A DNA stretch of 64,000 bases from an uncultured archaeon (GCA_964599215.1 CAZRDV010000001.1:55615-119614); one strand, 5' to 3'. Shown: positions 865-44,450, counted from the first letter of the stretch. The notes: generated from the sequence alone by a model not told the origin. Made by a program: numbers and translations.

Positions 865-868
865 CTCT

Positions 869-1315: not shown

Positions 1316-1317
1316 TA

Positions 1318-4980: not shown

Positions 4981-5013
4981 GTATTTTTTAAACATTTCTT
5001 CAATATTATTAAC

Positions 5014-5628: not shown

Positions 5629-5680
5629 AGCTACTGTTGTATATAAATAATTATTATAAAATAATAATTGAGTTGGTAAC

Positions 5681-5962
5681 ATGGAACCGGTTGGCAGGGT
5701 CAGAATACCGAAAAAGGGCGAGATTCTGGGTATTATTGAGAGTACCCTAGGTGCGAGCAGGCTTAGGGTAAGATGCAATGACGGTAAAATGAGGATATGC
5801 AGGATACCGGGAAAGCTGAGAAAAAGGGTATGGATGCGTATTGGTGATGTTGTAATTGTTAAGCCCTGGGAGATACAAAATGATAATGGCGATGCAATAT
5901 GGAGATACACTGCTGCTGAAGCTGGATGGCTTAGAAGAAAGGGCATACTAAAAAGTTTCTAA
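5681..5962 (+). CDS. eif1a: Translation initiation factor aIF-1A
   Basis: OB-fold eIF1A signature [51 protein letters not shown]-like tatataaata lies about 35 nt upstream. Confidence 0.85.
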
Positions 5963-5970
5963 ATGTTGTT

Positions 5971-6459
5971 ATGATTGACAGAATCCGAATTCCGAAAAAA
6001 AGAATTTCCGTGCTTGTTGAAAATAAGGGAATGGTTGAAGAGGCTACAAAAACCAAAATAAAATTAAACGATGAAATAACAGTAGCTGGTGGGCCTTTAG
6101 AGATAATGGACGCAAAAAACATGATAAAGGCCATTGGCCGCGGGTTTACAGTAGATACTGCTTTAGAACTGACAGACGAAAAAAATAATTTATGTATAAT
6201 ACCTTTACCAGATGATAGAAAAAAATTAAAGAGGGTTAGAGCAAGAATAATTGGCACAGGGGGTAGGAGCAAGAAAAAGATAGAAAAACTGACTTTTACA
6301 AAAATTGCTGTTTATGGGAAAACTGTCAGTATAATCGGAAAGTATGAAAATGTTGATATCACAAGAGAGGCCATAGAGAAGCTTATAAGAGGTTCTCCGC
6401 ACTCCACGGTGTATAGATTTATTGAAAGGTTATCAAAAAAGTTGAGTGATGTTGTATGA
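5971..6459 (+). CDS. KH-domain RNA-binding protein (Dim2/Pno1-like)
   Basis: Two KH-like segments with GxxG motifs (IIGTGGRSKKKIEKL). Position between eif1a and top6B is typical of archaea. Confidence 0.65.
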   Translation: MIDRIRIPKKRISVLVENKGMVEEATKTKIKLNDEITVAGGPLEIMDAKNMIKAIGRGFTVDTALELTDEKNNLCIIPLPDDRKKLKRVRARIIGTGGRSKKKIEKLTFTKIAVYGKTVSIIGKYENVDITREAIEKLIRGSPHSTVYRFIERLSKKLSDVV

Positions 6460-8009
6460 AGACTGCTGCTGAGCTTGCAAAAGAGCAGAAAGAGATAAGT
6501 ATAAGCGAATTCTTCGAGAAGAACAAGCATCTGCTTGGTTTTGATAATCCAACAAAGGCACTGATGATGACGGTAAAGGAGGGTGTTGACAATTCCCTGG
6601 ATGCAGCAGAAGAGGCGGGTATACTGCCTGATGTTAATGTCAGGATAAAAAATATATCCGATGATAAATTCCAGATTGTAATACAGGACAACGGCCCTGG
6701 TATCGTAAAGGAACAGGTACCAAGGGTATTTGGCAAGCTGCTTTACGGATCCAAGTTCCACAGGCTTAAACAGAACAGGGGCCAGCAGGGGCTTGGTATA
6801 AGCTGCTCTGTTTTATATTCACAGCTAACAACAGGTTCTCCAACCAAGGTCTGGTCAAAAATTGATAACAAAAACAAAACGCATTACTATGAACTCAACA
6901 TAAACACAATCAAGAACGAGCCGGAGATATTGAAAGAGGAAGATATAAACGACGGCTTGAAAGAGCATGGAATAAAAATAGAGATGAGAACCATAGGCAG
7001 GTATAGAAAAACCATTGAAGATTACCTAAAACAGACGTCGATAGCGAATCCGTTTGCAAAGATAGTTTACAACGCGCCGGATGGTACCAGAATTACGTTT
7101 CCCAGGTCTGTTGATGCTCTGCCAAAGCCTGCCAGGGAAATGAGACCCCACCCTTACGGGGTGGAGTTTGGGGTTTTGCTTAGAATGCTAAGCAAAACCA
7201 AGAGCAAGAATCTGGCTTCGTTTCTGTCAAATGAATTCTCTTCGCTTGGTGCCCACTCATCTAATCTGATATGTAAAACAGCCAGACTGGACAGAAACCT
7301 GAAACCTGCAAAACTTACAAGAGATGAGATTGAAAAACTGCTTAATGCAATGCAGAAGGTAAAGATACAGAGGCCACCTTTGGACTGCCTCTCGCCTATA
7401 GGAGACAAGGAACTGGAAAAGAGCCTCAAGAAAGAGTACCCAGAATCTGAATTCATAACCACTGTTCAGAGGGAGCCTGAGGTCTACAGGGGCTTCCCAT
7501 TCATAATAGAGTGCGCAATCGTGTACGGTGCAAAGACCGATAAGATGGATGTTATCCGGTTTGCAAACAGAGTGCCACTGCTGTACCAGGCAGGCGCATG
7601 CGCGATAACCGAGGCTGTCAGAAATGTAGAGTGGAAGCGGTACAACTTACCACAGAGTGGAAATGAGGTTTCAGCGCCGGTTCTGCTTATAGTCCATATG
7701 TGTTCCACATGGGTTCCTTTCATATCAGAGAGCAAAGAGGCAATTGCCAGCTATCCAGAAATAGTAAAGGAGATGAAGCTGGCAATACAGGATGTGGCCC
7801 GTGATGTATCAAGGTTCTTATCTGGTAAACGAAAAGTAGGTGAACAAAAGAGGAGATTGCTTCTCTTTGAAAGGTATGCACATGAAGTCGCTTCCTCTGT
7901 AGCCAAGCTAACAGGCAAGAATGAGAAGGATATAGAAAACCGACTTAAGGATTTAATTTCTAAAAGAATCAGGATAAGTGATAAGGATGAAGAGCAAAGT
8001 GAACAATAA
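6456..8009 (+). CDS. top6B: DNA topoisomerase VI subunit B
   Basis: Bergerat ATPase fold motifs (EGVDNSLDA, GLGISC). 517 aa, directly upstream of and overlapping top6A. Confidence 0.9.
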   Translation: MKTAAELAKEQKEISISEFFEKNKHLLGFDNPTKALMMTVKEGVDNSLDAAEEAGILPDVNVRIKNISDDKFQIVIQDNGPGIVKEQVPRVFGKLLYGSKFHRLKQNRGQQGLGISCSVLYSQLTTGSPTKVWSKIDNKNKTHYYELNINTIKNEPEILKEEDINDGLKEHGIKIEMRTIGRYRKTIEDYLKQTSIANPFAKIVYNAPDGTRITFPRSVDALPKPAREMRPHPYGVEFGVLLRMLSKTKSKNLASFLSNEFSSLGAHSSNLICKTARLDRNLKPAKLTRDEIEKLLNAMQKVKIQRPPLDCLSPIGDKELEKSLKKEYPESEFITTVQREPEVYRGFPFIIECAIVYGAKTDKMDVIRFANRVPLLYQAGACAITEAVRNVEWKRYNLPQSGNEVSAPVLLIVHMCSTWVPFISESKEAIASYPEIVKEMKLAIQDVARDVSRFLSGKRKVGEQKRRLLLFERYAHEVASSVAKLTGKNEKDIENRLKDLISKRIRISDKDEEQSEQ

Positions 8010-9063
8010 ATTAAAGGGGTTAGGTAGTGAAATAGAAGAGCAGATAGACAAGAAGCTGAACCCGAACATATCAATACCGATAAGGACCCTGTCAAATATA
8101 ATATACGACAAGTCCACAGGCCAGCTTACCCTTGGGGACAAGGTATCAAAAAGGTACTTCTTCAATGTTGCGCATGCAAAGAAATTTATGCAGACGATGA
8201 TGGTTGCATCTTTCTGCAATGATCTCATAGGCCAGAATATCCACGCAAGCATAAGGGACATGTTTTACAACCTTAAGAGGACATTGCCTGAAACAAGCGA
8301 GAATACCTTTGATGTTCAGAGCGAAAGCGATCCGATAATAATTGATCTTGAGGTTGCTCTGGATATCTTCAGGGAACAGCTTCATCTGACAACAGACAGA
8401 AAGGGCATAGTAGCAGGCAACGTCATAATAAAAGACAGGGGCGACAGCATTGACTGGTCTAAGCTTGGCAGCGGGGGCTGGTCAATACCCTCAACAGTAG
8501 AGGAAATAGAATTCAGTAAAGTAAATGCTGATTTCGTTCTTGTGGTTGAGAAAAATGCAGGTTTTGAACGCCTTCATGAAGATAAGTTCTGGCAAAAGCA
8601 TAACTGCATATTGATAGGAACCGGCGGGCAGCCGTCGCGTGGAACCAGGTTATTAATACAAAGGCTGAACAGGGAATATAAATTACCTGTATACGTTTTC
8701 ACGGACAGCGATGCATACGGGTGGTATATCTATTCGGTTATAAAGTCCGGTTCAATGAGTCTTGCCCATATCTCAGACAGGATAGCAACACCATCTGCAA
8801 AATTCATTGGACTAACCATATCAGACATATTCGAGTATGAACTGAAGAAATGTATCATCAAGGCAAGGGAGCTTGATATAAAGAGGGCGAAAGAGCTTTT
8901 GAATTACGAGTGGTTCAAGAGGCCGGAATGGCAGAAAGAGATAAACCTGATGATAAAGAAAGGTATAAAAGCCGAGATAGAGGCACTGTCACACCGTGGC
9001 CTGAAGTTCATGTCAGAAACATACCTGCCTGAAAAACTGAAGAAGAAGGCATTCCTTCCGTAA
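7978..9063 (+). CDS. top6A: DNA topoisomerase VI subunit A (Spo11-like)
   Basis: Toprim and winged-helix Spo11 architecture (FVLVVEKNAGFERL, IGTGGQPSRGTR). Overlaps top6B by 32 nt. Confidence 0.9.
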   Translation: MIRMKSKVNNKLKGLGSEIEEQIDKKLNPNISIPIRTLSNIIYDKSTGQLTLGDKVSKRYFFNVAHAKKFMQTMMVASFCNDLIGQNIHASIRDMFYNLKRTLPETSENTFDVQSESDPIIIDLEVALDIFREQLHLTTDRKGIVAGNVIIKDRGDSIDWSKLGSGGWSIPSTVEEIEFSKVNADFVLVVEKNAGFERLHEDKFWQKHNCILIGTGGQPSRGTRLLIQRLNREYKLPVYVFTDSDAYGWYIYSVIKSGSMSLAHISDRIATPSAKFIGLTISDIFEYELKKCIIKARELDIKRAKELLNYEWFKRPEWQKEINLMIKKGIKAEIEALSHRGLKFMSETYLPEKLKKKAFLP

Positions 9064-29135: not shown

Positions 29136-30938
29136 TTATTCTAGAACAGCCCTTATTCTTCGCACGCCTGCAGACACTGCTTCCTCTTTGATAATCCTGA
29201 ATTTTCCAAGCTCTTTAGTGTTTTTAACATGCGGACCTGAGCATATCTCCTTGGAGAAATCACCTATTGTATAGACAGAGACGTGTTCTCCGTATTTAGA
29301 TTCGAAGAAACCGAGCGCACCCTGGTTTTTTGCAGCTTCAGGCGTCATCTCATCGCAACTAACATCAAGGCCGGATTCAATAATCTTATTTACAAGCTCT
29401 TCCACCTTTTTTAGCTGTTCTTTGGTCATCTTTTCTTTATGCGAGAAATCAAACCTTAGGCGCTCAGCAGTTATGTTGCTTCCCCTCTGCTTTACATGGG
29501 GTCCGAGAACAATTCTTAATGCCTCATGCAACAGGTGCGTTGCTGTATGGTATTTTACTGCTGTATTGCTGTGATCAGCAAGTCCGCTCTTGAATATGCC
29601 TTCTGTGCTCTTCCTGCTAAGCTCCTGGTGTTTTTCAAATTCATTTTCAAATTCTTTTTTGTCCACTGTCCAGCCCTTTTCTTTTGCAAGCTCCTCTGTC
29701 ATCTCGATTGGAAAACCATATGACTGGAAAAGGAGGAAGGCGTCTCTGCCGCTTATAATCTTATTTTTTGGTGCAAGCCTGCTGAAATGCTTCATTCCCT
29801 TGTCAAGTGTTTTTCTGAATCTCTCTTCTTCTTTTTCTATTTCGTCTATTATGAAATCCCTGTGCTTCTTAAGCTCAGGATAATGAGAATACATTTCAAT
29901 TATCAAGCCTGCTAGCTGGGTTATGCCATCCTTCATGCCCAATAGCATGGAATGTCTTATTGATCTTCTGAGCAGCCTTCTTACTATATAGCCATGGCCG
30001 AGGTTTGATGGGGTTATTGCCCTGTCGTCTCCGAGGACAAAAACAACAGCACGCATATGATCTGCAATTATCCTTTCTGATTTTGTATCTTCGTTTTCCG
30101 ATAACTCCCTTATCTTCTTTATTATTGGCAGGAATAGCTCTGTTTCATATACGCTTTCTTTTTTCTGCAGAACTGCTGTTGTGCGCTCAAGTCCCATTCC
30201 TGTATCAACGTTCTTCTGCTTCAGCAGCTCGTATCGTCCATCCTTTGTCTTGTTGTATTCCATGAACACGTCATTCCATATCTCGAAATACTTACCGCAG
30301 TTGCAGCCAGGTTTGCAGTTTTTTGAGCATTTTTTCTTTCCTATATCAAAAAACATTTCTGTGCACGGCCCGCACGGACCTGTCAGGCCTGATGGTCCCC
30401 ACCAGTTGTCTTTTTTTGGATTGTAAAACAGCCTTTCTTTAGGCACGCCGAGCTTCATCCATGCCTTTGCTGACTCCTCATCTTTCGGGGCGTCGCTGTC
30501 GCCGGCAAAAACAGTTACGTTTATCCTTTCTTTGTCAAGGCCCAGGCCTTTTGTCATGAACTCAAGGCTCCATTCTATTGCCTCTTTCTTGAAATAATCA
30601 CCAAAGCTCCAGTTTCCAAGCATCTCGAAGAACGTATTGTGGAAAGGGTCGCCAACATCGTTTATGTCGTCTGTACGCAGGCATTTCTGCACATCAACAA
30701 TTCTTTTTCCAAGCGGGTGTTTCTGGCCAAGCAAGAAAGGCACAAGCGGGTGCATGCCAGCTGTTGTAAACAAGACTGTTGGATCGTTCTCAGGAATAAG
30801 CGAGTATGATGGTATAAATTTGTGATCCTTTTCCTCAAAAAATTTTATATATTTCCTCTTCAGCTCTTCAGCTTCCATAGTAGAAATTATAGAATAGGAT
30901 ATTTTAAAAGCATTGATAAGATGGTTAGGAAGTAACAT
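29136..30938 (-). CDS. alaS: Alanyl-tRNA synthetase, short (600 aa) bacterial-type form
   Basis: N-terminus DPTVLFTTAGMHPLVPFLLG and FFEMLGNWSFGDYFK resemble E. coli AlaRS. Editing zinc motifs HTATHLLH and CSGPHV are present. No C-Ala domain. Confidence 0.8.
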   Translation of the reverse strand: MLLPNHLINAFKISYSIISTMEAEELKRKYIKFFEEKDHKFIPSYSLIPENDPTVLFTTAGMHPLVPFLLGQKHPLGKRIVDVQKCLRTDDINDVGDPFHNTFFEMLGNWSFGDYFKKEAIEWSLEFMTKGLGLDKERINVTVFAGDSDAPKDEESAKAWMKLGVPKERLFYNPKKDNWWGPSGLTGPCGPCTEMFFDIGKKKCSKNCKPGCNCGKYFEIWNDVFMEYNKTKDGRYELLKQKNVDTGMGLERTTAVLQKKESVYETELFLPIIKKIRELSENEDTKSERIIADHMRAVVFVLGDDRAITPSNLGHGYIVRRLLRRSIRHSMLLGMKDGITQLAGLIIEMYSHYPELKKHRDFIIDEIEKEEERFRKTLDKGMKHFSRLAPKNKIISGRDAFLLFQSYGFPIEMTEELAKEKGWTVDKKEFENEFEKHQELSRKSTEGIFKSGLADHSNTAVKYHTATHLLHEALRIVLGPHVKQRGSNITAERLRFDFSHKEKMTKEQLKKVEELVNKIIESGLDVSCDEMTPEAAKNQGALGFFESKYGEHVSVYTIGDFSKEICSGPHVKNTKELGKFRIIKEEAVSAGVRRIRAVLE

Positions 30939-31404
30939 TGCCTGTGGTATTGCCGGTGGTGTTGCCTGTTATCTCTTCGTAGCCGCATTCAAGCGGTGTT
31001 ATTAGCAGGATATTACAGAGGCTATCAAATATGTTGCCTCTGGTTACATTTGTTATTTCCTCTTCGCCGTAAGGGCCTGTTACAACAGCATAGGTCTCGT
31101 TGCCTGGTATTTTTTCAACTATAAGCTGGATTTGATTATCGTTGGTTCTTAGATAATCAGGAAGGTTGTCTACATAAGAGATTATACCTGGATCAGGGTT
31201 ATACACTTTCATTATTGTAAATCCTACTCTCAGATATTCATTCTCTATGGCTGGGTCCAGCTCCCCTTCTATTACAAACTCTTTCAGCTCGTTTGTTTCT
31301 TCCGGTGGGGTTATGGCGCTTGTAAATACATATGCAATACTTGACATGAAGAATATGGAGGCTACGAGCAGCACGCCTATTCTCTGTTTTGTTATCTTTT
31401 TCAT
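30925..31404 (-). CDS. Hypothetical secreted/membrane-anchored protein
   Basis: N-terminal signal/TM helix and C-terminal TGNTTGNTTGNVTS repeat (sequon-rich). Confidence 0.45.
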   Translation of the reverse strand: MKKITKQRIGVLLVASIFFMSSIAYVFTSAITPPEETNELKEFVIEGELDPAIENEYLRVGFTIMKVYNPDPGIISYVDNLPDYLRTNDNQIQLIVEKIPGNETYAVVTGPYGEEEITNVTRGNIFDSLCNILLITPLECGYEEITGNTTGNTTGNVTS

Positions 31405-33684: not shown

Positions 33685-34065
33685 ATGAAAATAAAAGGAC
33701 AAGCAGCCATGGAGTACCTCATGACATACGGCTGGGCTATAATTATTATAATTGTGGCTGTAGCTGCTCTTTATGCCATGGGTGTATTCAATCTAGGAGG
33801 GAGTACAGTACCTTGTTCACCGTGTTTCAGCTACTTTGCATTCATAGACTACGCTAACGATACACTTAAAATCAGAAACGGGGCTTACGATATTCAGTCC
33901 ATGACTATCGATACAGGAACACTGAGTACATCAACACCAAGCCCAGGTAACGATATAACCGTTACAGGGTTAGCAGGAACAGGTGACTTGACCCTTACAA
34001 TAACATACAACCTTACATCTTCTGGTTTGGTCCACACGGATTCAGCAACCATACACAGGGGATAA
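33685..34065 (+). CDS. Type IV pilin with class III signal peptide (Q+1/E+5 type)
   Basis: MKIKG|QAAMEYLMTYGWAIIIIIVAVAALYA has basic residues, Gly at -1, Gln at +1 and Glu at +5. Solitary gene, convergent with the pilus operon. Confidence 0.65.
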   Translation: MKIKGQAAMEYLMTYGWAIIIIIVAVAALYAMGVFNLGGSTVPCSPCFSYFAFIDYANDTLKIRNGAYDIQSMTIDTGTLSTSTPSPGNDITVTGLAGTGDLTLTITYNLTSSGLVHTDSATIHRG

Positions 34066-34126: not shown

Positions 34127-35110
34127 TTAGAACATAGTACCGAACATACTTATAAGAACAGTTTTTGAAAGGAAGTATATTCCTAAGCCTAGGAAAAGCA
34201 ATATGGGAATGAATTTCAGCCCTGATCTCTCTGAACCCTCCTGCACCAGGCCTATGAGCATACCACCGAAAATAGATGTGATTAGAATAGCCAAGATAGA
34301 GTAGAGATTCAGGAATTCTGAATCAATTTCAGTGCTACTGAAGCTGATAAACGGGGCGTTGCCAGGAATGTTTTCTGTATCCATTCCCCCTGTTATCTCC
34401 CCCATGCTTGTGACAAGAAACCCTGATACCGAGTATAAGAGCGGTGCGCCTATTCCAGCCGCGAAGAAGATAAATATAACGTACATCATAACTATGGCGC
34501 TAACCTCTTTTCTCATGGTTTTTGTCTGCCTTATATCCTCTGCAAGGCTATCCAACAGGCTTGGAAGATTTCCGCCTTTTAGGAGTCCTTCTGCTAGCAG
34601 GTCCATGCTTCTTCTCAGGGCATTTGAATTGAATTTATCAACCAGCCTTTTGAGTGCGGTTTCTGCTGATTCTCCTGATATGGTCTCTTTTGCTGCCTGT
34701 TTGATTTCTGTCTCCAGTTGACCGAATTCAGGTCTTGCTGAGAGCAGCAAGGCCTTATCAATGGTGAAACCTGAACGAATATTGGATGAAAGGAGCCTTA
34801 AGAAATCAGGAATTATGTCTTCTACAAACTTTGTTCTGCTGTCAGTCTTTATGATCAAAACAGAGTGAATCAGAATCCCAAATAAAATAAAAATAACTAA
34901 AAAAACCGGCAGAACAAGGCTGCTGGCTATTATGCCTAAAAAATACAGAACAAGACTTATTAAACCAAATATAATGCCGTAAAAGACGAAAATACCGACA
35001 AATTTCTCAGCTGGCATGGATACCTTTGAATATATCAAATACCTCTTGATCCATCCCTTGTAGGAGGATGGTGCAAACCTGTACAATCTGTTATAAATTC
35101 TATACCTCAA
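34127..35110 (-). CDS. TadC/FlaJ-like T2SSF-domain membrane protein (pilus platform subunit)
   Basis: N-terminal TM pair, cytoplasmic T2SSF-like helical domain, C-terminal TM bundle. Last gene of the operon. Confidence 0.7.
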   Translation of the reverse strand: MRYRIYNRLYRFAPSSYKGWIKRYLIYSKVSMPAEKFVGIFVFYGIIFGLISLVLYFLGIIASSLVLPVFLVIFILFGILIHSVLIIKTDSRTKFVEDIIPDFLRLLSSNIRSGFTIDKALLLSARPEFGQLETEIKQAAKETISGESAETALKRLVDKFNSNALRRSMDLLAEGLLKGGNLPSLLDSLAEDIRQTKTMRKEVSAIVMMYVIFIFFAAGIGAPLLYSVSGFLVTSMGEITGGMDTENIPGNAPFISFSSTEIDSEFLNLYSILAILITSIFGGMLIGLVQEGSERSGLKFIPILLFLGLGIYFLSKTVLISMFGTMF

Positions 35111-35981
35111 TGGAAGGCCTCCTGTTCTTTATTATTCCGATGAAAGAAAACTGGAATACAATCAAAATAAGCAAGAGTAAAAAGAATATTGTTCTTGTTA
35201 TAGGGAACCCTGAAAATGAGGATATTATAATAAGAAAGGTAGTACCGAGCGAGGGTATGACCACGGCAAGCATCATGTACATCATTGCCATTGGGTTAAG
35301 CTGTGATCCGTATTTACGTATTGCTATTCTCTGTTCACTTGAAACATTATTAACAATGCTCTCAAGAGTGCTTCCTAGATCGGTACCTGACCTCATGGAA
35401 TTGGTTATCTGCCATATCGCCCTTCTGAAATGAAGAGACGGATTCTTTAATGCAAGTTCTTCCAGGGCAGTGTCTTCAGGCATACCAGTCGAGATTTTTT
35501 TGGTGCATATGGCAATTTCATCGGAGAGGGCACCATAGTTCTGTTTAGCGACGGAAACAAGCGAATCAAACAAAGAAACTCCTGATTTCACCTGTATGGT
35601 CAGGTGCCTTAAGCCATACAGAATATTTTTTTCCAGTTCTTTAACCTTTCTTGTAATCATAAGTTTCGGGTAAAGAAGTACATAAATAAAAGCTAGCAGG
35701 GAGACGCTGATAGCAGTTAGAAAAGATATGAATAAGAAATTAAGTTCAAGTATCTTCCCAAGGGTAAGGAATGATATTAATAAAAGGAAAAACCAGAAAA
35801 TTGATGTGATGAAGGCAACAGAGGCATACTCTCTTGCATCAATATCTATTTCAGCCTGTTTTAAGTACATATTAAGGGATGAGTGTTTTACTATCTTGTC
35901 CCCTATTCTTGTGAATCTTCTAGCTAACCTAAATATCTTTTCTAGAGGAAATGGAACAAAGGGAATTTTCTTCAATTTCAT
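35100..35981 (-). CDS. TadB/FlaJ-like T2SSF-domain membrane protein (second platform subunit)
   Basis: Same single-domain architecture as 34127..35110, overlapping it by 11 nt. Split platform as in bacterial TadB/TadC. Confidence 0.7.
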   Translation of the reverse strand: MKLKKIPFVPFPLEKIFRLARRFTRIGDKIVKHSSLNMYLKQAEIDIDAREYASVAFITSIFWFFLLLISFLTLGKILELNFLFISFLTAISVSLLAFIYVLLYPKLMITRKVKELEKNILYGLRHLTIQVKSGVSLFDSLVSVAKQNYGALSDEIAICTKKISTGMPEDTALEELALKNPSLHFRRAIWQITNSMRSGTDLGSTLESIVNNVSSEQRIAIRKYGSQLNPMAMMYMMLAVVIPSLGTTFLIIISSFSGFPITRTIFFLLLLILIVFQFSFIGIIKNRRPSIEV

Positions 35982-37507
35982 ATGCTCTCCAAATAGTATT
36001 TTGGGATAATTTCATCCGCATTCTTTTTGTTTTTTATGAGTTTCAGAACATTTTCAGGATCCTGATAATATTCGGAGATAACAAAACCGACGCCGTTTAC
36101 AGTATTAACCTTGTTCCTAACAAGCCAGTCGAGTATGACCTGCTTTGCTTTCAGGTCTTTCTGGATTTCAATTTCTGTCATCCCGCCATAAGACTTCAGC
36201 TTTTCCATCAGCTTGATGCTCTCTTTATATTTTATTATTTCGTCTTTCAATGGGTCCCATTTGAAAAGAACCCTTAACTCTTCTTTAGCCTTTTCCTCAC
36301 CTGTCGCTATGGTTGGGAGCATTTCCACTACCTCGTAGATTCTTCTTATGCCTTTTCTCCTGTCTCTGAACATGACTATCAGTAAATCTAATGATTCCAG
36401 GAGCGGCTCTGGCACGGATATCGGTGCGTTTACAAGCCTTCTGAATGTTTGTTCCGCAGTATCTGCATGCAGTGTAGAATAGACGCTATGGCCGGTGTGC
36501 ATTGCTTCAAAAAGAACTTCTGCTTCTTCTGCTCTTCTTATTTCGCCTACAACTATCCTGTCAGGCCTCATTCTAAGGCTGTTTACCAAAAGGTCTAGCA
36601 TACCTATCCCGCCCTTTCCTTCTGGATTTGGTTCTCTTGTTGTCAGTGGTACCCAGTGCAAGAAATCAGGCAGATTTACTTCTCGCGTGTCTTCTATGCT
36701 TATTATACGCTGATTTGGCGGTATGAAAGGCATTAGTGTGTTGAGAAAGGAGGTTTTGCCAGTTGCAGTGCCGCCAGAAACTATCATGTTCATCTCAAAT
36801 TCAATAGCCAGCCAGAGCAGTGCTGTTATTTGTGATGATGTTGTTTTGTGTTCAATTAGATCGGTAATGGTCCACGGCTTCCTTCTAAACATTCTTATTG
36901 ATATAGTATTACCTACAGTGGAGATTGGAAAAAGTGTTGCATTAACCCTGTCACCGCTGATTAGGTGTGCATCAAGCAGAGGGTGCATGGTTGTTATCTG
37001 TCTTCCAACCTTTCTTCCTATGGATGATGCATAGTTTAAGATGTTGGCTTCGCTGTCAATGGTAATGTTTGTCTTAAGCCAGCCGTATTGTTTATGATAA
37101 ACCCATACAGGGCTTTTTGATGAATTGACAACTATTTCCTCAAGCCTACCATCTGCCAATAACATTTCAATGTTTCCTAATCCAAGCATCTCGTGAACCA
37201 AAGAGGTTGCTAAAAAGTTCTCTTCTAGCTCAGTTATTCCGAAGAGCTTTTCTCTTATAATTTTAACCCCACGTGAGTATAACTTCGCTTTCATTTCTTC
37301 TAGGGCCTGTGGATCCAATAATTCATGTGTATTGATTTGTAATTTATTGATGATTTCTTCCTTTGCTTCATCAAGCAGCGCAAGCGTCCCTTCCTCCAGT
37401 TTTGGCATTTTTACAAAGTATATGGGAACAAAATCATGCTTGTCTTTTTTTATCTCTACTTCAACTTTGATTCTGTCAGCCGAAAACGAATATTTGTCTA
37501 TCATCAT
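35978..37507 (-). CDS. Type II/IV secretion system ATPase (FlaI/TadA/VirB11 family)
   Basis: Walker A GGTATGKTSFLNTL, Asp box IEDTREV, Walker B/His box RMRPDRIVVGEIR..HTGH. 509 aa with a long N-terminal domain. Confidence 0.9.
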   Translation of the reverse strand: MMIDKYSFSADRIKVEVEIKKDKHDFVPIYFVKMPKLEEGTLALLDEAKEEIINKLQINTHELLDPQALEEMKAKLYSRGVKIIREKLFGITELEENFLATSLVHEMLGLGNIEMLLADGRLEEIVVNSSKSPVWVYHKQYGWLKTNITIDSEANILNYASSIGRKVGRQITTMHPLLDAHLISGDRVNATLFPISTVGNTISIRMFRRKPWTITDLIEHKTTSSQITALLWLAIEFEMNMIVSGGTATGKTSFLNTLMPFIPPNQRIISIEDTREVNLPDFLHWVPLTTREPNPEGKGGIGMLDLLVNSLRMRPDRIVVGEIRRAEEAEVLFEAMHTGHSVYSTLHADTAEQTFRRLVNAPISVPEPLLESLDLLIVMFRDRRKGIRRIYEVVEMLPTIATGEEKAKEELRVLFKWDPLKDEIIKYKESIKLMEKLKSYGGMTEIEIQKDLKAKQVILDWLVRNKVNTVNGVGFVISEYYQDPENVLKLIKNKKNADEIIPKYYLESI

Positions 37508-38295
37508 ACCCTCCTCAAAACAGGCTTGCCTATGGCAGGATAGTCTATTTTTATAAGCCCGTGCTCTTCCAGTATCCTTGCCAGTTCTTCTATATGAGCT
37601 TCTTTCATTCCTGTTTCCTGTGCGATCTTTCCTATGCTGACCTTTGTTGTCACCATGTTCAATATCTTGTCTATATCAGTTTCTATTACGTTCCCCATTT
37701 CTTTTTGCATCACATCGAAAAACAGTCTCATTATACCTTTCATCACGTCTGTTCTGGTAGCTATGCCTGTTAAAGACCCCTTATTATTCACTACAGCCAG
37801 TCTTTCTGCATTGTTTTTATTTATCGTCTTTACCGCCTGGTTCAGGGTGTCGTCTTCCCTTACGGTAAATGGTTTGCGCATAACATCTCGGATAATGGTG
37901 CACCCCATGGCTTTTATGTCTTTGACGGTAATATCGTTTTTGCCCAATATTTTCAGTATGTCTGACTTGTTGATAATACCTACCAATTTGTTTCTGGATA
38001 GAACAGGGGCGCCATCAATCTTATCCCTGAAGAACATGTCTGCAGCGTTTCCTAGGTTGTCCTTTTCATCTAGCGTCTTCGGAGCTGGTACCATGATGTC
38101 CCTTATTTTTACAGTACCTATAATTATCTTATTCGTTACTGCCTTTACCCGCCTCTTCCTCGAAGCTGCAATATTGTCCAGTGTTTGCTTTGCTACTTTC
38201 TTTTGTGATTTTATTTTCATCTTTTTTTTACCAGCCTTTGGTGTCCTGTTTTTCATTTTGTTAACCTCCTTTTTCAATGATAATTTCTTAGCCAT
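37504..38295 (-). CDS. CBS-pair protein with C-terminal winged-helix domain, embedded in the pilus operon
   Basis: Lys-rich N-terminus, two CBS motifs (IMVPAPKTL..; VIRDVMRKPFTV..), C-terminal helix-turn-helix-like IGKIAQETGMKEAHIEELARILEEHGLIKI. ATGA overlap with the ATPase gene. Confidence 0.65.
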   Translation of the reverse strand: MAKKLSLKKEVNKMKNRTPKAGKKKMKIKSQKKVAKQTLDNIAASRKRRVKAVTNKIIIGTVKIRDIMVPAPKTLDEKDNLGNAADMFFRDKIDGAPVLSRNKLVGIINKSDILKILGKNDITVKDIKAMGCTIIRDVMRKPFTVREDDTLNQAVKTINKNNAERLAVVNNKGSLTGIATRTDVMKGIMRLFFDVMQKEMGNVIETDIDKILNMVTTKVSIGKIAQETGMKEAHIEELARILEEHGLIKIDYPAIGKPVLRRV

Positions 38296-38348: not shown

Positions 38349-39611
38349 TTAGATTAATAACTCTGATACACCATATATCGCATGGTGCGTGCTTCCTAGC
38401 GAGGTTATGTTATCTATTCTGAATGTAGGGTCTAGGCCCTTTACAGCATAGCCGTTTATCACATCGTTAGAAAAGTAAAGGTAATCTATATTTGTCTGTT
38501 GGTTTTTTATATCAAGGTCCAGTAACAGTAAGTATACCTTGTTAACAAAGCTTTCTAGTCCTATCGTATAATTTGTCTGGTTTGCGTACTTTTCCTGCAC
38601 TTCTAAGGAGCCTTCAAGTCGGTCAAGAAAACTCGCACCGACAGTGCTGGTGTAATAAACTGAATTCTCTGTATGATTCTTAAGTGTGTCTATAAACCAG
38701 ACCCTGCCTTTATCCCCGTCAACAAGGAGGTTTGTACTGTTTTCTATAAGAACCGTTGCGCCAGATGCATTGTAGACGTATGTATTTGTTGCCCCTGGGC
38801 TGACAGTTTCCTCGGATACAATTCCGAGGAATTGGTTAACTGTAGGGAGAGGGATAAGGGAGGCGTCGTCTGTAACCAGAATTTTTTCATCTTTATCTGG
38901 AACATTTAAAATCTCGGCCATGGATGAAGCTGGTATTACAACACCCTGTCCGTACACCCAGTTGCTGTTACCCATGCTATCTATGAGAAGTTCGGTATAG
39001 TTTTCATACCCAGCCTTTGCTATAAGATTGGTAGCCCTTCCTATAGTATTCAAAGGGTAAGTAGGATCTTCAAACCCCTCTATAGAAGTTAGATGATTGA
39101 GTGTTTCATCTCTGTTCAGGCTTGCAGTACCTCCTTTATCAGAGATGTTTATATTCATTACTCCGGTTGTAACCAGATTCCAGCTGTCATAGGGTTTTAC
39201 TTCAAAATTAGTAATGATTATGTTAATGTTATAGCCCTTGGTATCTCCTACATTTTTTATTTGAGCTATCCAGTCTGGAAGTGTATTGTTCTCCATCAGG
39301 CTTTGTGGTGTAGAATGCAGAGTACCATTCCAAGCTAGTTCTGCAAGGCTTTCCTGAGAATTGTTCAGGGAAACGCCTTCTGATACGATGGAACTTATGC
39401 ATACAGAGATTGCCCTTTTTGTTATGATGTCTGATGCCTTGTTGACATCCCTTACTATGCCTTCGTACATCTTGTACATGTCGTTTAACCTAGCTTCAAT
39501 AGAAATCTGTTCCCTTTTATGATGAACAAGGCCCTTCTGTATTTCTATCATACTAAGAAGTGTTATTGTTAACGAAATCAATATTAAACTGAACATAATG
39601 CCCTTTTTCAT
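38349..39611 (-). CDS. Secreted pilin-like glycoprotein with class III-type signal
   Basis: Internal start MKKG|IMFSLILISLTITLL chosen (the ORF opens at 39656). Many N-x-S/T sequons. 4-nt overlap with the vWA gene. Confidence 0.5.
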   Translation of the reverse strand: MKKGIMFSLILISLTITLLSMIEIQKGLVHHKREQISIEARLNDMYKMYEGIVRDVNKASDIITKRAISVCISSIVSEGVSLNNSQESLAELAWNGTLHSTPQSLMENNTLPDWIAQIKNVGDTKGYNINIIITNFEVKPYDSWNLVTTGVMNINISDKGGTASLNRDETLNHLTSIEGFEDPTYPLNTIGRATNLIAKAGYENYTELLIDSMGNSNWVYGQGVVIPASSMAEILNVPDKDEKILVTDDASLIPLPTVNQFLGIVSEETVSPGATNTYVYNASGATVLIENSTNLLVDGDKGRVWFIDTLKNHTENSVYYTSTVGASFLDRLEGSLEVQEKYANQTNYTIGLESFVNKVYLLLLDLDIKNQQTNIDYLYFSNDVINGYAVKGLDPTFRIDNITSLGSTHHAIYGVSELLI

Positions 39612-42229
39612 TTTTCCCACATCAAAACTTTTATCAGGCTTGGCCCCCATAGCCATCTCAAGCCTTTTAGATTCTTGGTTTCAGTAGCTATATTCCCTTC
39701 TCCTGCCTCCACATAGTCGCTTATTTCATTCTCAAGCCTTTGTATTGCATCAGCTGTTGCTGATTCATAACTGTCTAACATATCACCGTATCCTACTGAA
39801 CCACTTACCCTTATAGTATAGATGATTCTGTTGTCTGGAGATCCGCCCGTAGCATTGCTCGGCTCTACGCCGGTTCCAATCCTTACAGAGTTGTTTCCTG
39901 AGCTTATGTAATCTAAGGGTATCTGAACTATGTATGGATCTCCAAGGCTCTGGTAATCAACAATATAATCACCGAGCCAGTATATACCTGTCCAGTCGAT
40001 TAAAGGATTATTCACATACACGCGATCTGTCCAGAATTCTGAAGAATAGGATGTAATCTTAGCATCAGCTATTCTCACTTTCTCTGATACATTGAACCAC
40101 CCTTCTTTATATGGAATATCTATGGTGTCACCTGTGAAGTTTCTAAATCTTGCAGTTTCACGTGTCAGGGAGATCTCTCCGTATTCATACGGTAGTATGT
40201 TGGGTGTATAATCAAACCCTATATAAGAATCCGGATAAAGGATGTTTCCTGCTGAGATGTTACCGTCTATAGTTATTACCTGTGCCTTGTATCGTATCAC
40301 TATATTCTCAGCTATACGGCGGTATATCTCTCTCAGTTCTTCTGAATCAGCACTGGCGTAGTAAAGTCCTTCTCCACAACTTGCAATTGACCTCAGGGTC
40401 CAGTTTGCGTTTGGACAGCTTGCTACAGGACCAAATCCTATAGAGTGCACCACTGCGTCCAGATCGTTATGAACCCTGCAGGAAGAGTAATTTGCATTTT
40501 GCATTGCACCATTGCAGCTATTACCAGTGCAATCTGATGCACTGCCGAAACAGTCTGTGAATTGTGATGCTGTACTGGTTCCTGTTGAATTACAGCTTAT
40601 ACAGAAAAATAAGAACCAATCAGCGCAGCCGCAGCATGCAGAAGGAATTCCGTCAGACATAACAATTATATATTTTTCCCTGGAGGAGTTGCTGTAGGTA
40701 TTCAGGATATTGTATGCCCTGTTGATTGCACAACAGATGCAGGTGCCTCCTGAAGGCTCTTCTGGATAACCATCAATATGAGTTATTAATTCTTCTCTTG
40801 TTGAACCAAGGTCAGGCGTGTATACATAAGCATCGGAATTAAAGCCGACCAGTCCCATTCTATTGCCTGTGACATTCATGATGATGTTGATGAATTCTTT
40901 GTCAAGGCATCTGGCCAGGCTTATTCTGCTTGTGTTTGAGCTGTTTATTTCTGGATCACCACAATCTGAAATTACATTACCGTCATCGCTGCTGTTCATC
41001 TTCCAGTTCATACTTCCTGAAAGGTCTGTTATAAGAATAACATCTGCTTGCCCTTGTTTTATAAAGAGTGGTGATCCAGGTTCCAATCCAAACCTTATTG
41101 GTATTGTTTCTTCACTAAGATGTTCGTAATCCAATCCTGTTAAGGCAAGACTAGAATTTATTTCTGTGTTGTTCAGAAAAACGGTCTGTTCTCCTGAGGC
41201 ATTGCTCTTATAGACAGTTGCATTACCGATTGTAAATAAGAGGGTTGCATTTTCTATGTTGTTTAGATAGTGCAGGGATGCATTCATAGAACTTATGTTT
41301 CCTTGGACATAGAAAGACGAATACAGATTAATAAGTCCGTGTATACCTGGGAAATAGTACCTGCTGTTTGGTTTATCAGTAATCATCTCAGAGGTGTTGT
41401 AGCTGACCCTGAGGTATCCGCCGCCTATATAACTCCCGTTTCCTGTAAAGTTGATGTTGATTATATTGTCGCCAGAATTAAAATTATCTAGGTAGCTATA
41501 ATTGATGTTCCATGTGTCTGCTGTCATGTTTCCGTCACCAGAAGATTTAGTATAGAAGCCTGAATCCTGGTTGTTTATGTACAAGCTGAAGTTGTTGCCT
41601 GCATTGAATTCAATATAAGCCTCATTCACAACCTCGATTATTGGCAGAGTTATGATTCTAGTTATGTTTCCTTCTCCGACAAAACCTCCGAAGTATGCAT
41701 AGGCTGATTCTGTCTTACTCTTTATGCTTGTTAGAAATGCCCTTGCAAGGTAACCCTGGGTTGGTTTTCCAACCATGTAACCTGTTTCTATCCTGGCTGA
41801 AACTGCTGTATTTCTCTCTGACAGGCTGCATGAAGAATATATAGATTCATTTTCAAGATAGAGGCCAATACAGAAATCAAGAGTAATCCTTTCCATGACC
41901 TCTTTAGATATATTAAGCGCTATTGACCTGTTGCCGGCGTACCAGAAACTGGCAATCAGGTCTAATATTGTCTTGTTCAGGTCTGCTTCTTTTATGACAT
42001 TCTTCGATACTAAGTTTGCTATGGTCGGCTTATCAATGAAACTAGATGCCTTTAGGTGGGAGATTGCTTCCATGGTGTCATCCGCAATATAGCTTAGCTT
42101 TTCATATTGTCTTTCCTGAAATGTACTTTCTGAACTCCAATAGCTGCCGAACATTAGAATAGATAACAGCAAGATAGACGTCCCTAAGAGAATGTCTAAT
42201 GTAAACACGAATCCTTTTTTCATTTCCAC
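39608..42229 (-). CDS. Large secreted vWA-domain glycoprotein, putative pilus tip adhesin
   Basis: N-terminus MEMKKG|FVFTLDILLG. vWA/MIDAS motifs DLSGSM ... VMSDG at about aa 395-640 with a Cys-rich insert. More than 25 N-glycosylation sequons. 873 aa. Confidence 0.8.
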   Translation of the reverse strand: MEMKKGFVFTLDILLGTSILLLSILMFGSYWSSESTFQERQYEKLSYIADDTMEAISHLKASSFIDKPTIANLVSKNVIKEADLNKTILDLIASFWYAGNRSIALNISKEVMERITLDFCIGLYLENESIYSSCSLSERNTAVSARIETGYMVGKPTQGYLARAFLTSIKSKTESAYAYFGGFVGEGNITRIITLPIIEVVNEAYIEFNAGNNFSLYINNQDSGFYTKSSGDGNMTADTWNINYSYLDNFNSGDNIININFTGNGSYIGGGYLRVSYNTSEMITDKPNSRYYFPGIHGLINLYSSFYVQGNISSMNASLHYLNNIENATLLFTIGNATVYKSNASGEQTVFLNNTEINSSLALTGLDYEHLSEETIPIRFGLEPGSPLFIKQGQADVILITDLSGSMNWKMNSSDDGNVISDCGDPEINSSNTSRISLARCLDKEFINIIMNVTGNRMGLVGFNSDAYVYTPDLGSTREELITHIDGYPEEPSGGTCICCAINRAYNILNTYSNSSREKYIIVMSDGIPSACCGCADWFLFFCISCNSTGTSTASQFTDCFGSASDCTGNSCNGAMQNANYSSCRVHNDLDAVVHSIGFGPVASCPNANWTLRSIASCGEGLYYASADSEELREIYRRIAENIVIRYKAQVITIDGNISAGNILYPDSYIGFDYTPNILPYEYGEISLTRETARFRNFTGDTIDIPYKEGWFNVSEKVRIADAKITSYSSEFWTDRVYVNNPLIDWTGIYWLGDYIVDYQSLGDPYIVQIPLDYISSGNNSVRIGTGVEPSNATGGSPDNRIIYTIRVSGSVGYGDMLDSYESATADAIQRLENEISDYVEAGEGNIATETKNLKGLRWLWGPSLIKVLMWEK

Positions 42230-42693
42230 ACCACAGAATCCAGAAAAACAAAGGTGCTGTTTAATATGCCTGCTCTCTTCACCTTGATAACATCCCTGCT
42301 GTTTGACGGAGTTAAACCGAAATTAAATAATGTTGTGTTTGTCTCGTCGTAAACTAAAAAATAATATTCCAGGTCACCTAAACCAAGCAATTGTTTGGAA
42401 GCGTTGTAACCAATTTCATTTAGGCTGTTCATCTTAGAGTAGTTGAATGCATGGTTATCCTGAAAGCCGAGGCTGATTATGTTGGTCTTATTCCAGTTAT
42501 TTGGTACGCCCTGCCTAAACCAGACATCAGAAGTAAGATATGCTTTTTCTATTAAGTCATCTAAGTACCGTGTTTCGTCTATCTGTGATGTAACGCCTAC
42601 CCATTGTATAAGCAGGATACTAACAACTAAAAAAAATACAAACGATGCTATAATGAAATCGTATGAAAGCTGGGCCTTAAGTAACATAGACAA
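42220..42693 (-). CDS. Pilin-like protein with class III signal
   Basis: MSMLLKA|QLSYDFIIASFVFFLVVSIL has Gln at +1. Sequon-rich soluble part. Confidence 0.5.
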   Translation of the reverse strand: MSMLLKAQLSYDFIIASFVFFLVVSILLIQWVGVTSQIDETRYLDDLIEKAYLTSDVWFRQGVPNNWNKTNIISLGFQDNHAFNYSKMNSLNEIGYNASKQLLGLGDLEYYFLVYDETNTTLFNFGLTPSNSRDVIKVKRAGILNSTFVFLDSVVWK

Positions 42694-43063
42694 CCCCGTT
42701 TATATTTTCAATAAGATTCCAGCCTGTTTTAATTTCGCCTGTAATATTCTTTGTTGAGATTATACAGGCTTTTGATCCATGATCCCAGTCTATAAACACA
42801 GCATAATCACTAACTACTATATCAAAATTGGATACGCCGAAAAGCGTTTCCTCTATATAAAAAGACCGTCTGTATGAATCGCCGAATCTTACTGCTGAAT
42901 TGATTTCAAATGCAGTTCTTTCACAGAGTTTTTCGATTTCTTCGTCTGCTTTTATATTAAAACTCCTTTCCCTGAGTGACATCTCGCCAAAGATAAAGAG
43001 TGTGAACATTACTATCAGAACTGACAGGAGTACCATAAACTCTATAGTCATTTGACCCTTCAT
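42677..43063 (-). CDS. Type IV pilin (Q+1/E+5)
   Basis: MKG|QMTIEFMVLLSVLIVMF has the canonical prepilin N-terminus. 128 aa. Confidence 0.7.
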   Translation of the reverse strand: MKGQMTIEFMVLLSVLIVMFTLFIFGEMSLRERSFNIKADEEIEKLCERTAFEINSAVRFGDSYRRSFYIEETLFGVSNFDIVVSDYAVFIDWDHGSKACIISTKNITGEIKTGWNLIENINGVVYVT

Positions 43064-43464
43064 TCAACCACAGTTATGTTTACAGAATACTTATCAGCAA
43101 TCAGCGCAATGAAGTAGCATCCGTTGTTTGTCGGCACAGAACCATTTAACATAGGTATCGTATCACTGTAGATGTCCACGATGCCGGCTGATGTCTTTAG
43201 CTTGAATAATACCATGCTGTCTAATAATACCTCTTCCACACCCTCTGGGATACAGACATTTATTGTCAGCCTTGCTGGAGGGCCCTGGGAGTAAACCCAG
43301 TTGGCGCTTTCAGCGATTTTGCTTGCAGCAGCCTTTGCAGATGATATCTTCACATCCTCTTTGTAGCCAAGCAGGTTCTGGTTAGAATAGAGGATAAGTG
43401 GTACGAGTATTGCCAGCGCAAGCCCGATGATTACTAGATATTCAACAGATGCCTGAGCTTTCAT
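43060..43464 (-). CDS. Type IV pilin (Q+1/E+5), first gene of the operon
   Basis: MKA|QASVEYLVIIGLALAILV. 134 aa. 4-nt overlap with the next pilin gene. Confidence 0.7.
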   Translation of the reverse strand: MKAQASVEYLVIIGLALAILVPLILYSNQNLLGYKEDVKISSAKAAASKIAESANWVYSQGPPARLTINVCIPEGVEEVLLDSMVLFKLKTSAGIVDIYSDTIPMLNGSVPTNNGCYFIALIADKYSVNITVVE

Positions 43465-43913
43465 AAATATAGTTATTCTCGCCCTAATAAGAGTTTTATT
43501 TTAAAGTTTTCTGTGCAAATACTAAACTGACGTAGTATTCTGAGTGAGAAGTTAAAACTAACAGCATTATTGATGTCTACTGATCTGCTATATAATATAG
43601 GCCCCCGGTTTAACTCTCACATTTGGGTGTGAGTTCACCTATCTTCTGTAATATATATTTGATTAAGCTTATTATCAATAATATATTATACTATTAATAA
43701 TTAGTATGAAAGATATTTGATGTAATATATATTGTAGTAGATACTACCATGATTATCTCTCACAAAAGAAATATAGGCTTGAAGATATATTTGTCAAATG
43801 ATTCTTAATTACATATCAATCTCAATAGATATTTCTTAGAATATAATATATCTGAAAATTTGGTTATATCTCTCACATAAGAAAATTATTTTGTTAAAAG
43901 TAAGCAAAATAGG
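43465..43913 (-). promoter_or_regulatory. AT-rich upstream region of the pilus operon containing three TCTCTCACA-type motif copies
   Basis: Motifs at about 43611 (actctcacatttgggtgtgag), 43755 (tatctctcacaaaagaaa) and 43868 (tatctctcacataagaaa). Multiple TATA-like tracts. Confidence 0.4.
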
Positions 43914-44450
43914 CTACTCTTCTTGCTTATTTTCATTCTTTTCTACCTTATTTTCTTCGTTTATTGCTTCATTTTGCTCTTCTTTTTCCGGCTTCATGGT
44001 GCGCGCCATCTCTAACATAAGAAGGTCGTCAAAATCCTTTGCAATTCTTCGTGTTTTTCTCATAAATGCCTTTGTTGCTGATTCTACCCTGTCTAAGAGG
44101 CGGTTTACAGTAGGTGCTGTAAGCATATATCCCTTAATAAAATCATTTCCTGATGGTATTTTAACGAATTCCATCAGCCCCAGGGTTCTCCATTTCCTTA
44201 TTTCCTCGTATGTCTGGCTCTGTGATATTGATAATATCTGGGAGATCTGCTCTATTGACAGCGGTATGTTCTCTTTTCTGTATTTTAGCAGCTCCAGGAG
44301 CAGCTTTGAATGGTCTGCCCTGCTCTCTTTTCTTTTAAGACCTAGTCTCCGGACCAGGGCAACAGAAAGGTCGTTTGTTGTTATATTTAGTTTGTTATCA
44401 GGCGGCTCAACTCGTATAAAAACCATATCAGAAAGCTTCTTTTTCGGCAT
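43914..44450 (-). CDS. HTH transcriptional regulator, putative
   Basis: Central helix-turn-helix-like segment (IEQISQILSISQSQTYEEIRKWRTLGLMEF) and acidic Glu/Lys-rich C-terminus. Immediately upstream of the pilus operon on the same strand. Confidence 0.5.
   Translation of the reverse strand: MPKKKLSDMVFIRVEPPDNKLNITTNDLSVALVRRLGLKRKESRADHSKLLLELLKYRKENIPLSIEQISQILSISQSQTYEEIRKWRTLGLMEFVKIPSGNDFIKGYMLTAPTVNRLLDRVESATKAFMRKTRRIAKDFDDLLMLEMARTMKPEKEEQNEAINEENKVEKNENKQEE

Follow-up and report, generated by a model that had tools for sequence, protein, structure and literature searches.

Which role does a large protein with a von Willebrand factor A (vWA) domain and a pilin-like N-terminus play in an archaeal pilus operon? 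The question is raised by a stretch of 64,000 nucleotides from an uncultured archaeon (GCA_964599215.1, CAZRDV010000001.1:55615-119614), in the following called the window, which carries the gene on its minus strand. The vWA fold with its intact metal-ion-dependent adhesion site (MIDAS) is genuine, and it is well supported that the protein is extracellular, glycosylated and disulfide-stabilised. As for its role, our favoured answer, held with moderate confidence, is a pilus-displayed tip adhesin in a five-member minor-pilin complex, in which variable loops flanking the MIDAS set the ligand specificity. The operon is that of a DPANN archaeon, probably an Aenigmatarchaeote.

The first-pass annotation had described a minus-strand open reading frame (ORF) at 39608-42229 that encodes 873 residues from a GTG, and this ORF was confirmed. 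Translation probably starts at its third codon, because the ATG at 42223 shares an ATGA with the stop codon of the gene before it and because a protein database entry identical to the 871-residue product (P0001) starts at the same ATG. The most likely product is thus the 871-residue protein beginning with MKKGFVF. Residue numbers given here are those of the 873-residue ORF unless marked 871. In the databases members of the family are named only 'VWA domain-containing protein' or 'hypothetical protein'. For conservation analysis and structure prediction an alignment of 85 full-length homologues (A1) was used.

A Rossmann-like vWA fold had been expected around residues 395-640, to be sought by Pfam scan and structure prediction, and both bear it out. 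The Pfam families VWA_2 (PF13519; 35.8 bits, cut-off 27) and VWA (PF00092; 26.4 bits, cut-off 23.8) match above their gathering thresholds. The MIDAS is formed by D402, S404, S406, T496 and D526. D526, the Asp of the SDG motif, is invariant across the 85 homologues and the other four residues are conserved at 90% or more. The AlphaFold2 model based on A1 has a mean predicted local distance difference test score (pLDDT) of 89.5 and a predicted template modelling score (pTM) of 0.64. It starts with an N-terminal helix (3-56), followed by helices up to residue 113, β-structure (117-380), the vWA domain (393-642), in which strands and helices alternate in a Rossmann-like α/β fold, and a β-rich C-module (660-870). 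Modelled alone, residues 1-388 reached a pLDDT of 75.9, whereas in the full model they have about 90; this loss of confidence suggests that the N- and C-modules pack together. In the structural comparison the model matched best a true pilin-vWA protein, followed by tip adhesins of pili or fimbriae (Mfa5, PitA, SpaC, RrgA and GBS104). A profile search against PDB sequences retrieved Mfa5 (8.6e-13) and PilB (1e-9), while a profile of the N-module gave no match to PDB sequences.

The location outside the cell is indicated by the glycosylation sequons. The protein contains 31 N-x-S/T sequons, in agreement with the more than 25 counted before, whereas composition-preserving shuffles have 12.1 ± 3.0 (maximum 24 in 2000 shuffles). 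With 3.55 sequons per 100 residues the density is about seven times that of the other ORFs in the window (0.50). Elsewhere in the window a 159-residue protein (30925-31404, minus strand) has one N-terminal hydrophobic segment, 5 sequons (3.1 per 100 residues) and the C-terminal end NTTGNTTGNVTS; it has no Pfam match and is probably another surface glycoprotein.

The N-terminus reads MKKG/FVFTLDILLGTSILLLSILMF, where the slash marks the putative cleavage site, and thus consists of a short basic leader ending in Gly and a hydrophobic segment of about 20 residues. Behind this site follow two hydrophobic residues, F, T or S, a further hydrophobic residue, and D or E at +6. The corresponding motif, [KR]-[GA]/ΦΦF[TS]ΦD, was found in 108 of 120 homologues, and the other 12 are truncated or have a mis-called start. 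Among the 108 sequences, K or R occupies -2 in 104 and G or A occupies -1 in 107, D or E is present at +6 in all, and the leader is 3-7 residues long in 92. In the models the N-terminal helices comprise residues 3-34 and 36-56 (full length) or 2-31 and 36-56 (residues 1-388), a 54-residue helix that corresponds to an α1 of about 50 residues. The N-terminus is therefore prepilin-like, as the first-pass annotation had read it.

The genetic context points in the same direction and makes a role as minor pilin or tip protein, also proposed earlier, plausible. Nine genes on the minus strand form an operon (Table 1), encoding proteins of 134, 128 and about 155 residues, the vWA protein, a protein of 420 residues, a CBS protein, an ATPase and the two halves of the platform. 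ATGA overlaps join the pilin genes, the vWA gene and the 420-residue gene, and likewise the CBS gene, the ATPase gene and the first platform gene. The two platform genes overlap by 11 nt, so that the short gap between the 420-residue gene and the CBS gene is the sole unjoined junction. The vWA gene is translationally coupled in a pilus operon and encoded together with its assembly ATPase and platform, and this linkage is kept in relatives: among 83 related loci, many of which end early at contig ends, a homologue of the 420-residue protein lies directly downstream in 68, an ATPase gene within the flanks in 50, platform genes in 41-43 and a CBS protein gene in 26. Upstream of the vWA gene, at least one small class III ORF is present in 49 of 58 evaluable loci and at least two in 39, and these small proteins of the relatives carry K[GA]/Q...E/D motifs.

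The 420-residue neighbour differs from the other pilin-like products in one respect. In its family, which begins with K/R-G/hydrophobic residues, D and E are absent from +1 to +10 in 56 of 56 sequences, whereas an acidic residue is found at +6 throughout the vWA family and, in the three small proteins, at +5 or +6 (E or D). An ATGA joins its ATG at 39611 to the stop codon of the vWA gene, and the start annotated at 39656 probably adds 15 codons too many. The protein belongs to no Pfam family. Paralogy between the N-module of the vWA protein and this downstream product (435 residues as annotated) received no support from the profile comparison, which found only the shared MKKGxxFxL signal.

Table 1. 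Coordinates of the vWA gene, its parts and the neighbouring pilus genes in the window.
Feature	Coordinates	Strand	Description
vWA/MIDAS pilin-like glycoprotein gene	39608..42223	minus	871 aa from ATG at 42223; ORF extends to GTG at 42229 (873 aa)
Class-III-like signal (MKKG/FVFTLD...) and long N-terminal helix	42056..42223	minus	aa 1-56
N-module	41060..42055	minus	aa 57-388; helical region, then β jelly-roll-like domain(s); 18 of 31 sequons; no Pfam family
vWA domain with complete MIDAS	40298..41059	minus	aa 389-642 (871 numbering)
Cys-rich insertion, hypervariable hot-spot	40514..40648	minus	after VMSDG strand; aa about 526-572 (871 numbering: about 526-570)
C-module	39611..40276	minus	aa 650-871; β-rich, kept family-wide; no Pfam family
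Small pilin-like protein, 134 aa (MKA/QASVEY)	43060..43464	minus	+1 Gln, +5 Glu; weak Pfam Class_IIIsignal match; position kept in relatives
Small pilin-like protein, 128 aa (MKG/QMTIEF)	42677..43063	minus	N-terminal motif
Pilin-like protein, ~155 aa (MLLKA/QLSYDF)	42220..42687	minus	+1 Gln, +5 Asp; sequon-rich; ATGA overlap with vWA gene
Pilin-like protein, 420 aa (MKKG/IMFSLILIS...)	38349..39611	minus	N-terminal segment without acidic residue; 11 sequons; candidate cap subunit
CBS-pair protein	37504..38295	minus	Pfam CBS 4e-25
Pilus assembly ATPase (T2SSE; FlaI/TadA-like)	35978..37507	minus	identity confirmed by profile
Two platform genes (T2SSF/TadC/ArlJ halves)	34127..35981	minus	293 + 327 aa; identity confirmed by profile
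Candidate major pilin, 126 aa (MKIKG/QAAMEYLMTYGW)	33685..34065	plus, divergent	proposed from N-terminus

What the protein might bind with is indicated by the surroundings of the MIDAS. The first-pass annotation had placed the motifs DLSGSM and VMSDG about 230 residues apart, with a Cys-dense stretch between them. All the strings it quoted are present (DLSGSM at 402, CICCAINRAY at 497, VMSDG at 523, ACCGCADW... at 531, SCPNANW at 604 and SCGEG at 617), but the two motifs are 121 residues apart and only CICCAINRAY, the helix directly after the MIDAS residue Thr496, lies between them. The main cluster (10 Cys within residues 532-584), SCPNANW and SCGEG all follow VMSDG and are located in and beyond the loop after the strand that bears the last MIDAS Asp. 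Altogether 16 of the 18 Cys residues of the protein are located within residues 423-618, in or beside the vWA domain.

Conservation reaches 73-98% at 12-13 Cys positions of the family, and their co-occurrence follows pairs. C120/C134 and C497/C500, the latter a CxxC after the MIDAS Thr, each have a phi coefficient of 1.0, C584/C618 has 0.86, and other pairs have 0.8-0.96. C441, C546, C560, C567, C572 and C605 disappear as one block, and 66 of the 85 homologues have an even number of Cys. C423, C499 and C533 are near-invariant and each lies just downstream of one MIDAS-bearing loop. The cystines predicted from this pattern are C497-C500, C499-C533 or C423-C533, C584-C618 and three within the block of six. 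As Cys columns come and go in pairs, the alignment bears the signature of an insertion stabilised by cystines rather than by a Cys4 metal site. Of the earlier proposal of a disulfide- or metal-stabilised insertion, the first half thus stands and the second is downgraded.

The insertion and the loop after DxSxS are the least conserved parts of the vWA domain, with pairwise identities of 0.36 and 0.31 compared with 0.47-0.67 for the core, and also the most variable in length. Among homologues of about 870 residues the insertion comprises 15-100 residues. In homologues of 1000-2031 residues the vWA domain is split at the same site by about 300 to about 1000 residues and, less often, by about 150 residues after DxSxS. 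Because the longer relatives carry large inserts at the same point, the Cys-rich insertion is the minimal form of a module-insertion hot-spot on the MIDAS face. The insert of P0097 matches a BNR/YCF48-type β-propeller (PSII_BNR, 4e-11), and the same propeller family, PF14870, is among the precomputed Pfam domains of P0119; both proteins have about 1190-1210 residues. In P0045 (1459 residues) the insert matches a GH114-associated domain (1.7e-5). For the majority of the remaining inserts, which are 300 to about 1000 residues long, no match was obtained. Inserted arms are also known from RrgA and SpaC.

From these observations the following course of events can be proposed for a tip adhesin. The class-III-type signal (MKKG/FVFTLD...) would insert the vWA protein into the membrane, where it is probably cleaved by a prepilin peptidase whose gene lies elsewhere. 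It would then join an initiation or tip complex with the 134-, 128-, about 155- and 420-residue pilin-like products. In this complex the 420-residue protein without acidic residue may serve as a GspK-like cap: judged by the residue pattern it would cap the filament, with the vWA protein adjoining it, because its family is the only one without the acidic residue, as in GspK and CpaL. In the extended pilus the vWA domain would present its metal-ion-dependent adhesion site. The two MIDAS-flanking loops, one after DxSxS and the other the Cys-rich insertion after SDG, would form a variable specificity surface, and the jelly-roll of the N-module, which resembles a carbohydrate-binding module, may add glycan contacts.

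The main rival to a tip adhesin is an uncleaved signal-anchor (type II) protein, which would stay in the membrane as a surface adhesin or as a base or anchor of the pilus and never enter the filament; we consider this rather unlikely. Several observations speak against a textbook pilin. At +1, the co-encoded small pilins and the Epd pilins have Gln, which EppA-type peptidases may require (PMC3875500), whereas the vWA family has F, I, Y, L or V. Its acidic residue stands at +6 (108 of 108) and not at +5; Sulfolobus and Haloferax pilins lack the +5 Glu (PMC3875500). The vWA protein has no match to Class_IIIsignal (PF04021), Pilin_N (PF07790) or N_methyl, and Pilin_N matches one of 21 family members with an E-value of only 0.043. 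An A24 prepilin peptidase was not found in the window or the 83 related loci, an absence that is weakly supported because multi-transmembrane proteins were searched with a crude regular expression (GxGD[VAIL][KR]). A glycoprotein of 870 residues is also far above the size of characterised archaeal pilins, and signal cleavage, incorporation at the tip, the order of the subunits and adhesion to host cells or surfaces are steps that we infer. The residue at +1, the lack of a match to a pilin hidden Markov model and the missing peptidase gene all favour the anchor, as does the idea, cited by Makarova 2016, that TadG serves the pilus as its membrane anchor. However, a plain membrane anchor is unlikely because the [KR]-G positions, the leader of 3-7 residues and the Asp buried in the hydrophobic segment are kept over 108 homologues at 30-55% overall identity. 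In addition, the acidic residue is always present in the vWA family and never in the adjacent protein, which fits the packing logic of a filament, and the best structural match is a true pilin-vWA protein.

Other explanations accept the pilus and differ in what the vWA domain does there or in what holds the insertion together. The domain could prime assembly or sense force as in PilY1 and CpaL, with disulfides tuning its unfolding and adhesion not being the main role, which we judge improbable. The position of the near-invariant C423, C499 and C533 just after the three MIDAS-bearing loops would suit such a sensor, and published work links the vWA domain of PilY1 and a critical disulfide to mechanosensing, and CpaL to the sensing of surfaces (PMC11870444; PMC8806160). 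On the other hand, no downstream signalling partner is evident except the CBS protein, and the hypervariable inserts argue for diversity of ligands. The operon contains one ATPase gene only, and no retraction ATPase is known for archaeal T4P-like (type IV pilus-like) systems. Slightly more improbable still is that the Cys-rich insertion is a Zn or Fe-S module instead of a disulfide knot. Its dense CC, CxC and CxxC spacing would allow this, and disulfides outside the cell are less to be expected in the anoxic habitats of many DPANN. Moreover, three near-invariant Cys are an odd number, so that at least one of them may be outside a disulfide. Against a metal module stand the paired gain and loss of the Cys columns with the even counts described above, the lack of conserved His/Cys tetrads in the family and of a Pfam metal-binding domain in the vWA protein, and the extracellular location of the segment according to the sequon density. 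A cytoplasmic regulatory vWA protein of the ArnB/MoxR-partner type was rejected as having next to no probability: the N-terminal signal or transmembrane helix, the 31 sequons and the paired Cys contradict it, the operon contains no FHA (ArnA) or MoxR/GvpN partner, and pilus tip adhesins score higher in the structural comparison.

How far the family extends was assessed by several searches. A word-indexed search gave 468 full-length relatives at E≤1e-3 with 34-59% identity, and those with a name belong to Aenigmarchaeota, Woesearchaeota, Nanoarchaeota, Parvarchaeota and Altiarchaeota. When one genome per GTDB species was scanned, relatives were present in at least 273 stretches. The best 80 of these are labelled as DPANN, Pacearchaeota, Micrarchaeota and Nanohalarchaeota among them, and a few of the labels are doubtful. 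Loci L045, L076 and L080 place homologues in metagenome-assembled genomes of Nanohalarchaeota (one) and Micrarchaeota. The profile of the N-module retrieved 1285 cluster representatives (50% identity), 528 of them at E≤1e-30, and the module is always at the N-terminus of the protein. Six of the related loci (L024, L027, L041, L044, L049 and L058) are on contigs labelled 'uncultured Methanosarcinales' or 'Candidatus Coatesbacteria'. As the family is confined to DPANN elsewhere, automatic labelling or mis-binning of the contigs seems more likely than a real occurrence. In a Nanoarchaeota metagenome-assembled genome (JAZDHH010000023.1, locus L005) a 1365-residue paralogue at 3913-8010, beginning MEKKRG/FLFTLDSVLG and without a Pfam match on record, lies directly upstream of the vWA homologue, which suggests tandem diversification of the large pilin-like subunit.

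Further features of the surroundings concern the pilus system as a whole. The divergent candidate for the major pilin (126 residues) has an N-terminus nearly identical to those encoded by two tandem 152-residue genes at locus L003. The CBS-pair protein, encoded between the pilin genes and the ATPase gene, has weak winged-helix matches at its C-terminus and may be a nucleotide-sensing regulator of the pilus machine. Upstream of the first pilin gene, an AT-rich intergenic region of 449 nt (43465-43913) contains three minus-strand copies of TGTGAGAG[A/T]TA (43609-43621, 43752-43764 and 43865-43877). With at most one mismatch this sequence has 6 matches in the window compared with 0.63 expected, and the copies may be operator or promoter repeats. 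Beyond this region a divergent gene (43914-44450) encodes a 178-residue protein without Pfam match. A second, partial T4P-like locus is located at the edge of the window (40-2343, plus strand), with a T2SSF platform gene (40-864) and genes for two class-III-like proteins (869-1315, MKGIINIEF...; 1318-2343, MKGFVRILEAV...). It is followed by the gene of an 862-residue UPF0182 membrane protein (2392-4980, plus strand; Pfam E-value 4e-279).

Most of the ultrasmall DPANN archaea are uncultivated. Many depend on attachment to host cells, through molecules of which little is known. The vWA family is a concrete, testable and apparently undescribed candidate for this attachment, with a visibly variable ligand-binding face and a range that covers Aenigmat-, Woese-, Pace-, Nano-, Alti-, Parv-, Micr- and Nanohal-archaeota. 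Going further, the family could be a conserved DPANN device for the recognition of hosts or surfaces, placed at the tip of an Epd-like pilus and with the MIDAS-side insertion as an exchangeable specificity cassette; this is a possibility that we put forward only tentatively. If true, the insertion, be it a 15-residue loop, a disulfide knot or a module of up to about 1000 residues such as the β-propeller, would set the host or substrate range of the episymbiont and provide a marker of DPANN host range that can be read from sequence. It would also contradict a groundwater study in which T4P components were 'missing in DPANN genomes' and pili were used to assign ultrasmall cells to the candidate phyla radiation (CPR; bioRxiv 10.1101/2020.05.14.094862). 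Pili are an unsafe criterion for CPR because the operon family occurs in those at least 273 species-level stretches, of which the best 80 are labelled DPANN. The strategy of placing a module on a pilin, which is established in bacteria (PilB, CpaL/TadG), would reach the Archaea. To pilus specialists the principle will not be surprising, and in general biology it counts as a variant of something already known.

The combination of a pilin N-terminus with a vWA adhesin, which the first-pass annotation took for a novel fusion, has precedents in bacteria: it is solved for PilB of Streptococcus sanguinis (PDB 7B7P; PMC8179133) and predicted for CpaL/TadG (PMC11870444), and vWA is among the widespread architectures of bacterial modular pilins (PMC8179133). 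PilB, whose adhesion is MIDAS-dependent and for which a location at the tip was proposed because of its bulk (PMC8179133), is a close counterpart. Like the vWA protein, PilB (7B7P/7BA2) has a class-III-type N-terminus and a MIDAS-bearing vWA domain and is encoded in a T4P locus; the profile search matches it at 1e-9. It differs in being bacterial, in its size of about 460 residues and in its small pilin module joined directly to the vWA domain. It lacks the 330-residue N-module, the 220-residue C-module, the Cys-rich insertion and N-glycosylation, has the bacterial N-methyl motif (IPR012902) with Glu at +5, and shares 15-19% identity with the vWA protein.

CpaL of Caulobacter and TadG of Aggregatibacter, by their description, also combine a minor-pilin-like N-terminus with a MIDAS-bearing vWA domain and are co-encoded with at least two small minor pilins. 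Denise and colleagues are said to have placed Tad in 2019 as the class of bacterial type IV filaments (TFF) that is phylogenetically nearest to the archaeal Epd-like pili. The TadE and Tad families of Pfam (PF07811 and PF13400) match neither the vWA protein (E≤0.1) nor 21 N-terminal modules (E≤1). In CpaL/TadG, for which a tip position is predicted, the vWA domain is interrupted by a β-rich domain beside the DxSxS loop (PMC11870444), whereas the commonest insertion site in the family described here follows the SDG strand. CpaL itself lacks an acidic or aromatic residue at +6; in the operon described here, Asp at +6 is retained in the vWA protein but missing from its 420-residue neighbour. A bacterial minor pilin without the acidic residue caps the filament, GspK being the classic case and CpaL being argued likewise (PMC11870444). 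In residue pattern alone, the member of the minor-pilin set that resembles a GspK-type cap is thus the 420-residue neighbour (56 of 56) and not the vWA protein.

PilY1/PilC are similar in that minor pilins display a vWA domain at the tip and in that disulfides of this domain matter functionally. PilY1 is not a pilin, having a Sec signal and a C-terminal β-propeller, unlike the vWA protein with its class-III-like N-terminus, which also has no PilC/PilY1 domain of Pfam (Neisseria_PilC). RrgA, SpaC, GBS104, PitA and Mfa5 lack a class III signal and belong to sortase or type V pili, whose assembly chemistry, through isopeptide bonds or by strand exchange, is entirely different.

Among the archaeal systems, the Epd pili of Methanococcus maripaludis and the archaeal TFF 'system 1' are alike in their split platform with ATPase and their several pilin-like genes. 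The split platform and ATPase are the mark of 'system 1' in methanogens and DPANN, in a preprint that makes no mention of vWA (10.64898/2026.04.22.720090), and the rule for Epd pilins, a short leader ending in Gly or Ala with Gln at +1 and Glu at +5 (PMC3875500), is matched by the small co-encoded proteins. In the literature searched, no vWA-bearing class III protein is described for Epd or other archaeal systems. An archaeal or DPANN vWA pilin was likewise not found in the full-text literature searched, where subscription journals are mostly outside and an earlier description is possible. For archaeal T4P loci, the 2016 census discusses only cytoplasmic vWA proteins of the ArnB type, with TadG as a bacterial case only (Makarova 2016). 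What sets the family described here apart from PilB and CpaL is its domain of life and its DPANN clade, its size, two flanking modules that belong to no Pfam family, a very high sequon load, the disulfide knot and an insertion site that is hypervariable. A further difference is the division of roles between a vWA subunit with D at +6 and a neighbour without the acid. It is thus the known theme of a pilin with an added module that is extended here, rather than a new principle.

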